Notes under the pieces: generated by a model | Told to the model about the DNA's origin: nothing | What the model saw: the letters and a program-made list of their open reading frames with translations, nothing else | Database searches by the model: none | Assembly: GCA_947623555.1 (NCBI GenBank) | Contig: CANQGW010000002.1 | Span: 21,746-85,745, forward strand | DNA: 64,000 nucleotides | Origin: an uncultured Clostridia bacterium | GTDB lineage: Bacteria > Bacillota > Clostridia > TANB77 > CAG-508 | Direction of reading: 5' to 3' | Position numbers and translations under genes: made by a program | In this document: positions 57,881-58,129 of the stretch, in pieces | How positions within the stretch are numbered: position 1 is the first letter of the stretch | How the letters are laid out: each line of letters opens with the position of its first letter

Positions 57881-58075
57881 TGGCAGCTCCAGCCGGATTC
57901 GAACCGACATTTCTCATATCAACAAAATGGCATCTATATAAAAGGGATCGGAGAGAGTGTGTCTGAAAGGGAAAAAACTACCTAATAGATAGATTTAATT
58001 TATAAATTGCCATTACCGAGTGATACAAAGTGTTCTTCCATTTGAACTATAGAGCTTCGCAATAAAAAAACTGCT
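57881..58075 (-). ncRNA. about 195-nt tRNA-shaped ncRNA with own promoter and terminator (acceptor, D-arm, T-arm and CCA present; about 105-nt insertion in place of the anticodon loop)
   Basis: 3' end GUCGG-UUCGAAU-CCGGC-UGGAGCU-G-CCA. 5' AGCUCUA-UA-GUUC-AAAUGGAA-GAAC pairs with the 3' acceptor strand. 9-bp anticodon-like stem UUUGUAUCA/UGAUAUGAG encloses about 105 nt. Promoter TTGACA-17-TATTAT at 58082-58110. Confidence 0.4.
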
Positions 58076-58129
58076 TTCTCTATAATAACACAATTAAATA
58101 TAATTGTCAATATTTTACAACTAAAATTA

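Follow-up and report, generated by a model that had tools for sequence, protein, structure and literature searches.

The 64,000-nucleotide (nt) stretch of DNA analyzed here (the window, from an uncultured Clostridia bacterium) carries on its minus strand, just 3' of a gene of the HlyIII family (58792..58130), a gene for an RNA with the shape of a transfer RNA (tRNA), in which a long arm takes the place of the anticodon stem-loop. This is probably an undescribed kind of working tRNA-derived RNA rather than a broken tRNA. We tentatively propose that a genuine gene derived from a tRNA has here been kept by selection, and that its product would most likely be non-decoding, mature like a tRNA and carry an arm that varies between lineages. 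It is a variant of the tRNA-like or tRNA-derived RNAs that fits no described family, and literature searches gave no description of such an RNA. The option of a novel tRNA-like RNA, listed in a preliminary description of the locus made from the window's letters, turns out to be the best fit. The comparison with an orthologue shows, as far as can be read from two sequences, purifying selection on the tRNA core and on the signals around it (promoter, leader, terminator), with an arm whose sequence appears unconstrained.

The comparison covers the intergenic region between the HlyIII gene and the gene downstream of the RNA unit, which encodes a 1437-amino-acid (aa) BcrAD_BadFG/DUF2229 protein, in 12 related lineages with HlyIII proteins 74-100% identical. 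The gene order at this locus is conserved and the spacer is a variable hotspot: tRNA-type units occur in three of the 12 lineages, the others being mostly empty or having a 72-aa membrane open reading frame (ORF). The window spacer (HlyIII 100%) holds one RNA with an insert ("type B"). Three items occupy the spacer of lineage L005 (HlyIII 89%): a tRNA of ordinary size with anticodon UCC ("type A"), a gene for a 277-aa protein and a type B orthologue (4361-4509). L007 (HlyIII 87%) has a single type A unit there, whose anticodon is GAG. The same promoter and the same leader motif, AAAGCARTWYTTTTATTG, are found in all four units; the motif occurs once in the window and is common to the units of L005 (two copies) and L007. 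The terminator is likewise common to both type B units. The L005 orthologue, from a rabbit-gut Clostridia metagenome-assembled genome (MAG), lies at the same locus, scores 44.7 bits with the Rfam tRNA family (RF00005) and has an 81-nt insert.

Between the two type B RNAs, seven of the 16 core pairs differ, two on both sides and five by G-C/G.U changes, and all 16 are standard in both. The both-sided changes, read from window to L005, are at pair 1-72 (A-U to G-C) and pair 49-65 (G-C to A-U). By helix, pairing is kept at 7/7 positions in the acceptor stem, 4/4 in the D stem (two of them via G-C/G.U changes) and 5/5 in the T stem; as a control, sliding the partner columns cuts pairing to 28-53%. 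The identity of the segments, with z-scores taken against shuffled sequence, is 80% for promoter plus leader (z 4.5), 80% for the 5' tRNA part (z 4.3), 75% for the 3' tRNA part (z 4.8) and 93% for the terminator, the best-conserved segment (27 of 29 positions the same, z 6.4). The corresponding values are 48% for the insert (z 0.1) and 60% for the neutral spacer after the terminator (z 1.3), and the flanking genes are only 52-63% identical at their four-fold degenerate sites. Single-nucleotide polymorphisms within a lineage (L005 versus L006) lie outside this region and are uninformative. Conservation extends to the positions of the tRNA elbow (U8-A14, A15-U48, G18G19 with the T loop) and to A26-A44. 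The acceptor ends differ, with A1-U72/G73 in the window and G1-C72/A73 in L005. The inserts, 114 versus 81 nt long, are no more similar than shuffles. Their boundaries, ACUUU... and ...UGAGAAA, are the only parts that can be aligned; since these are common, the interrupted form predates the split of the lineages.

The RNA itself scores above the gathering threshold of the Rfam tRNA family, as does its L005 orthologue; neither is picked up with default filters. Run with defaults, ARAGORN reports no tRNA at the site and the Rfam gathering scan has no match there. ARAGORN in intron mode calls the RNA, and when 57870..58065 is searched alone, RF00005 (clan CL00001) matches with 34.5 bits over model positions 1-71 (E 5.8e-6; gathering threshold 29). 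The acceptor stem, the D arm with G18G19 and the T arm, which the preliminary description had recognized together with the CCA end, all form in the minimum-energy fold of the 176-nt RNA (Table 1), with UA linking the acceptor 5' strand AGCUCUA to the D arm. All elements that the description lists lie where it places them, to within a base or two. The description's estimate of about 195 nt fits the distance from the predicted start to the CCA, and not the mature RNA, which would be 176 nt long. Because the folding stability of the whole RNA is not unusual against shuffles (z -1.07), the case rests on the tRNA signature and on the comparison with the L005 orthologue.

The signals around the RNA agree with an independent transcription unit. 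The promoter proposed earlier (TTGACA-17-TATTAT) is present and scores 11/12 against the consensus. It proves little alone, since the DNA is AT-rich and abounds in such sites (5 promoter-like sites were found in the region scanned, with 5.5 expected). It aligns with the promoters of the three related units, the -35 element, TGTTA..ATA and the spacing being invariant. The leader of about 20 nt would come off by RNase P cleavage before A1, and its hairpin survives G-C/G.U and A-U/G.U changes among the related units. The terminator hairpin, which lies within a base or two of where it had first been placed, begins at the last A of the CCA and is the sole terminator-like site in an 800-bp region, in which 0.1 would be expected.

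Table 1. Coordinates of the tRNA-shaped RNA unit in the window.
Feature	Position	Strand	Remarks
SigA/sigma-70-type promoter	58082..58110	-	TTGACA (58110-58105), 17-nt spacer, TG-extended TATTAT (58087-58082)
5' leader	58057..58077	-	AAAGCAGUUUUUUUAUUGCGA; small hairpin GCAGU-U6-AUUGC at 58074-58059
tRNA-shaped RNA	57881..58056	-	176 nt, A1 to encoded CCA; RF00005, minimum-energy fold, ARAGORN intron mode
Acceptor stem, 5' strand	58050..58056	-	AGCUCUA; pairs with 57885-57891, 7 bp
D arm	58032..58047	-	GUUC-AAAUGGAA-GAAC; 4 bp; A14, A15, G18, G19, A21
Insert	57915..58028	-	114 nt in place of 13 RF00005 model positions (anticodon stem-loop)
C-rich, G-poor stretch	57971-57944	-	CCCUUUCAGACACACUCUCUCCGAUCCC; mostly unpaired in the fold
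T arm	57892..57908	-	GUCGG-UUCGAAU-CCGGC; 5 bp, UUCGAAU loop
Acceptor stem, 3' strand	57891-57885	-	UGGAGCU; then G73 (57884) and encoded CCA (57883-57881)
Intrinsic terminator	57845..57881	-	11-bp hairpin AAAGCAGAGAA-UUAUU-UUCUCUGCUUU, then U-rich tail; hairpin 57881..57855

The insert is closed by a 9-bp stem (58029-58021 with 57921-57913; RNA nucleotides 28-36 and 136-144). This stem had been noticed before, as one enclosing about 105 nt; it encloses 99 nt and contains three G.U pairs, all among the first four pairs of the arm base, where an extra linker nucleotide is also found. Beyond the closing stem the insert consists of a further AU-rich helix and the mostly unpaired C-rich stretch, which exposes three C-rich motifs (UCCCU, CUCUCUCC and UCCCUU). 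By analogy these may resemble the anti-Shine-Dalgarno seeds of Firmicute small RNAs; they are not common to the L005 arm. Six of the about 25 pairs in the insert helix are G.U and therefore pair on the RNA strand only. The preliminary description had also considered that a small insertion element might have disrupted a tRNA gene, and proposed a search for other copies of the insert. No further copy exists in the 64-kb window or in the fetched related loci, blastn of the insert against phage and plasmid collections matched T-arm pieces only, and exact 20-mers of both inserts are absent from viral contigs. With the interrupted form kept under selection, the idea of a disrupting element is weakened.

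The window RNA does not look like a decoder: where an anticodon stem of 5 bp and a loop of 7 nt (U33, anticodon, purine 37) would be expected, its fold has the 9-bp stem leading into the 99-nt domain, and anticodon, discriminator and pair 1-72 are not common to the window and L005. Transcription, processing by RNase P and at the 3' end, the non-decoding status and any role of the arm are what we infer from this architecture. In the proposed mechanism, the strong promoter would start transcription about 20 nt upstream of A1, RNase P would remove the leader hairpin by cutting at A1, and the terminator would be trimmed back to the encoded CCA. A 176-nt RNA would then remain, in which the acceptor, D and T arms fold into the L shape typical of a tRNA core and the anticodon stem-loop is swapped for a long arm differing between lineages. 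Such an RNA would not be able to read a codon, because the long arm stands in place of the anticodon stem-loop. The tRNA core would act as a module for maturation and stability, the same principle as in laboratory "tRNA scaffolds," and the arm would be a variable payload, which in the window would expose the three C-rich, G-poor motifs. That the arm matters, even with a sequence that does not last, is suggested by its retention, because both lineages keep 80-114 nt and the sister units have normal short arms. Neutral filler would presumably have shrunk, and both lineages kept a long insert at the same place.

Several observations weigh against this non-decoding, arm-bearing RNA. The two inserts fold unlike each other, one as a long hairpin and the other as a three-way junction, with no common seed; a conserved target of the arm is therefore unlikely, since the arms share neither seed nor structure. 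The window insert alone folds no better than shuffles (z -1.26), and its antisense strand is equally stable. In a crude screen, the duplex energies of the arm with the start regions of neighboring genes rank 42-47 of 72, and no preferred target emerges among them. The unit is missing in nine of the 12 lineages, including one with HlyIII 87% identical, and is thus dispensable. The type B form is known from two uncultured rabbit-gut Clostridia lineages, and because only these two carry it, the statistics rest on one pairwise comparison. Finally, conserved exons around an unconstrained, length-variable and persistent insert are also the classic signature of an intron.

The alternative that survives best, unlikely as we consider it, is a decaying or neutral accessory tRNA with an insertion in its anticodon loop, which would still be transcribed without having a function and whose tRNA parts would merely look conserved. 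It would account for a dispensable and patchy unit (3/12 lineages) that is cleanly deleted in one lineage (L143), for the lower RF00005 score in the window than in the orthologue (34.5 vs 44.7 bits), for an anticodon-arm base that is off register and G.U-rich in the window, for an insert no more stable than shuffles and for the odd identity features of the sister units. However, seven core pairs have changed and none is broken; the similarity of promoter, leader, tRNA parts and terminator far exceeds that of the adjacent spacer and the four-fold sites; and the common insert boundaries place the interrupted form before the split.

Rather improbable is a mimic or decoy in which the acceptor/T-arm "elbow" with its CCA is the active part, e.g., as substrate or sponge for a tRNA-end enzyme or toxin, the insert merely keeping the RNA off the ribosome. 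Selection indeed falls mainly on the acceptor, D and T arms, the positions of tertiary pairs (U8-A14, A15-U48, G18G19/T loop, A26-A44) are kept and the insert sequence is unconstrained, as such a mimic would have it. Yet, the discriminator and pair 1-72, which are the main identity positions of the acceptor end, differ between the orthologues, and the retention of 80-114 nt is left unexplained when the sister units have normal short arms.

An intron is about as improbable, or slightly more so. The inserts would then represent a new class of bacterial tRNA intron, other than group I and 80-114 nt long, removed by a protein enzyme (endonuclease/ligase) or by a ribozyme hitherto unrecognized; in the same doubtful case, the products would be accessory tRNAs of remolded identity, Gln-like UUG here and GUG in the relative. 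Because an intron, too, would leave a conserved body around a free insert, the rebuilding of a mature tRNA was tried. In intron mode, ARAGORN reads the window RNA as Lys(UUU), with an intron of 80 nt and a variable arm of 26 nt. It reads the L005 RNA as His(GUG), with an intron of 75 nt and a tidy cloverleaf with the loop CUGUGAG; both the junction positions and the anticodons differ. Manual enumeration yields the loop AUUUGAU (UUG) for the window, split into AU and UUGAU around an insert ending in G, the exon ending in U. For L005 it yields GUG only, and no combination of U-exon and G-intron leaves a 7-nt loop. The tidy L005 cloverleaf speaks for an intron, as do the window loop with its Gln-like UUG, which would suit G73 and a weak 1-72 pair, the sister units, which likewise changed their anticodon along with 3-70 and 73, and the presence of another intron in the tRNA-Thr gene of the same genome. 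On the other side, the implied splice positions and anticodons disagree between the orthologues, the L005 product would be a tRNA-His without G-1 and without C73, and the putative anticodon stem of the window has G.U at three of its five pairs and a 2-nt linker at position 26. The folds of neither orthologue contain a bulge-helix-bulge motif, no known small ribozyme or other family was found in the Rfam search of the RNA, and bacteria are not known to have machinery for such splicing. A group I intron, which had been considered too long for this RNA from the outset, is excluded, as Intron_gpI has no match in the RNA at E<=10; the tRNA-Thr intron, with 28.3 bits, served as positive control for this search and matches the group I model, whose core is not detected here. 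A non-group-I intron, a further candidate of the preliminary description, lacks support: splicing yields no common anticodon, and N73 and pair 1-72 differ.

The tRNA-Thr(UGU) gene (17001..16695, minus strand) carries a 231-nt insert after anticodon position 36, and a perfect cloverleaf results from its exons. The last base is U in the 5' exon and G in the insert, which matches Intron_gpI at positions 1-253 with 28.3 bits (E 1.7e-5), without reaching the gathering score of 50. The gene comes after tRNA-Lys and tRNA-Glu in one cluster and is missed by default ARAGORN and the Rfam gathering scan.

Hardly credible at all is an attachment (att) site remnant, i.e., the 3' tRNA fragment of an integrated element, or a miniature transfer-messenger RNA (tmRNA): the locus is a variable hotspot, L005 has an integrative-mobilizable-element cassette between its two units and both inserts contain short 11-codon ORFs, but the 5' half is complete and covaries with the 3' half in L005, the window holds no duplicated 3' tRNA fragment (the T-arm motif occurs once outside true tRNAs), pair 3-70 is C3-G70 and not G3.U70 in both orthologues, the D stem is full, neither ARAGORN nor Rfam calls a tmRNA, Rfam finds no Y RNA, and the ORFs lack a Shine-Dalgarno sequence and a common tag. 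The initial verdict against a tmRNA is thereby upheld, and the worry that the complementarity of the 5' end might be coincidental is removed. Two further classes were tried and rejected. A Y RNA of the YrlA type disagrees with the free CCA acceptor end, has no Rfam match and has no rsr nearby. The small RNA SpF41 (RF02435) scores 17.3 bits here and 24-32 on the related units, against a threshold of 52, and its match spans the T arm, the acceptor 3' strand and the terminator only.

The known non-decoding RNAs with a tRNA shape are few in bacteria and comprise tmRNA, YrlA and a few pseudo-tRNAs. In tmRNA (SsrA), similar to the RNA described here, a tRNA-like acceptor/T-arm module with CCA is combined with a long non-tRNA domain at the place of the anticodon arm; unlike tmRNA, our RNA has a full D stem and C3-G70, lacks pseudoknots and a conserved tag frame, and is half the size. 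To our knowledge, the only tRNA introns of bacteria are self-splicing group I introns, such as that in the tRNA-Thr gene of the window. They share the interruption of the anticodon loop, the conserved exons and the free insert, whereas the insert here (99-114 nt) has no group I core and no common 7-nt loop can be rebuilt. Archaeal and eukaryal tRNA introns are cut at a bulge-helix-bulge, and the intron of Haloferax tRNA-Trp measures about 105 nt. The insert size is similar and the body of our RNA is tRNA-Trp-like (A1-U72, G73, D arm GUUC..GAAC), yet it is encoded in a bacterial genome, its folds contain no bulge-helix-bulge and the insert is not at 37/38.

There is also a likeness to the tRNA scaffolds of Ponchon and Dardel, in which a foreign RNA, carried on an extended stem, reportedly takes the place of the anticodon stem-loop, with RNase P and 3' processing retained. 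In YrlA the two ends of the RNA lie in the stem that binds Ro/Rsr, and the acceptor-like stem is closed. In both the scaffolds and the RNA described here, a tRNA body has lost its anticodon stem-loop to another RNA, and the tRNA fold gives the scaffold its stability; the scaffolds are artificial, whereas the arrangement here is natural, being that of a chromosomal gene which has a promoter and a terminator to itself and is selected in two lineages. YrlA is likewise non-coding and joins a tRNA-like module of T arm, D arm and acceptor to another helical domain, whereas in our RNA the acceptor stem is free and bears CCA, Rfam gives no Y RNA match and neither rsr nor rtcB is nearby. Papers are available on the methods of tRNA scaffold RNAs (PMC3401473; PMC3753655) and on YrlA (PMC4201824).

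If the non-decoding reading is true, this natural gene, which keeps its tRNA core under selection together with an unconstrained arm of 80-114 nt, would be the first case in nature that corresponds to the laboratory tRNA scaffold; otherwise it might be a new kind of tRNA intron, and either would be new biology. The weight of this is limited by the same facts that count against the proposal, namely two uncultured rabbit-gut lineages and a dispensable unit.

Wider searches have added no third type B lineage. The pattern of leader plus tRNA start matched two "Lapin" rabbit-gut MAGs only in a scan of GTDB genomes and had no match in metagenome contigs. The pattern of T loop, CCA and terminator matched 49 metagenome and 12 viral loci, all of them ordinary tRNAs followed by an unrelated element. 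The leader-only pattern is too unspecific to find relatives, the 3' pattern matched one ordinary phage tRNA-Leu and the D-arm pattern an unrelated phage tRNA-like gene.

Within the family, the two type A tRNAs (L005 3267-3341, L007 3265-3342) are stand-alone genes with near-identical bodies, whose anticodon stem-loops agree at only 3 of 17 positions. The anticodon arm is thus the part that turns over in the family, since bodies are alike and stem-loops differ. The L005 unit has UCC, G3.U70 and G73, and that of L007 has GAG, A3-U70, A73 and a 7-nt variable loop. The pair looks like a case of remolded tRNA identity, and G3.U70 in the L005 unit could permit alanine charging. In three lineages (L013, L016, L017) a predicted membrane ORF of 72-73 aa with its own promoter and terminator replaces the tRNA-type unit, and in others (L009-L011, L018, L143-L148) both are absent from the spacer. 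In L143 the C-terminus of HlyIII (237 aa) is altered and the tRNA-type unit is cleanly absent.

The gene for the 277-aa protein (L005 3391-4269), which has its own promoter, lies between the two tRNA-type units of L005. The protein has no match in Pfam, NCBIfam or PADLOC and marginal ones in PHROG (E 0.12) and the PDB (E 0.038); about 209 close homologues exist. Its usual home (L160-L164) is in integrative mobilizable elements with the order integrase, RepA_N, Mob_Pre, 277-aa gene, Ppx-GppA and NUDIX. It was considered as a partner of the RNA and rejected, as it is captured cargo of such elements and shows no link to the tRNA-shaped RNA; its other locations have no tRNA-like units, and the gene is not in the window.

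The phage tRNA-like gene met with the D-arm pattern (CAGUACA UA GUUU AAUGGGA GAAC A CUUUU CGCGAG AAGAG ...; viral loci L150-L153, L157, L158) has a 6-nt anticodon loop, is called tRNA-??? with a 2-base anticodon by ARAGORN and adjoins a tRNA-Asn, which in one locus (L152) is called with a 25-nt intron. At human-gut metagenome loci (L165-L225), many ordinary tRNAs (Tyr, Ala, Thr-Tyr pairs and others) are directly followed by AAAGCAGAGCCAGACGAACC..GGTTCGCCTGGCT, which looks like the terminus of an element that is widespread and integrated at the 3' ends of tRNA genes. Some of these contigs belong to the viral collection.

The neighbors of the RNA unit are core, origin-proximal genes: rsmG, parA, parB, glycosyltransferases, the BcrAD_BadFG/DUF2229 gene, GerM, a small methyltransferase, an rsmI-like methylase and an AbrB-like gene. 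No integrase, rsr or rtcB is found among the genes near the unit. The window has matches in metagenome contigs, and among named relatives those closest to it are "uncultured Clostridia bacterium" MAGs from rabbit gut. The sign of the GC skew flips between about 38 and 40 kb (window about 36000-46000), and rsmG, parA and parB lie at 43981-46535; the window probably spans the replication origin region. The GC content of the window is about 25%, with two stretches of extremely low values, 16% at 20001-22000 and 15% at 48001-50000.

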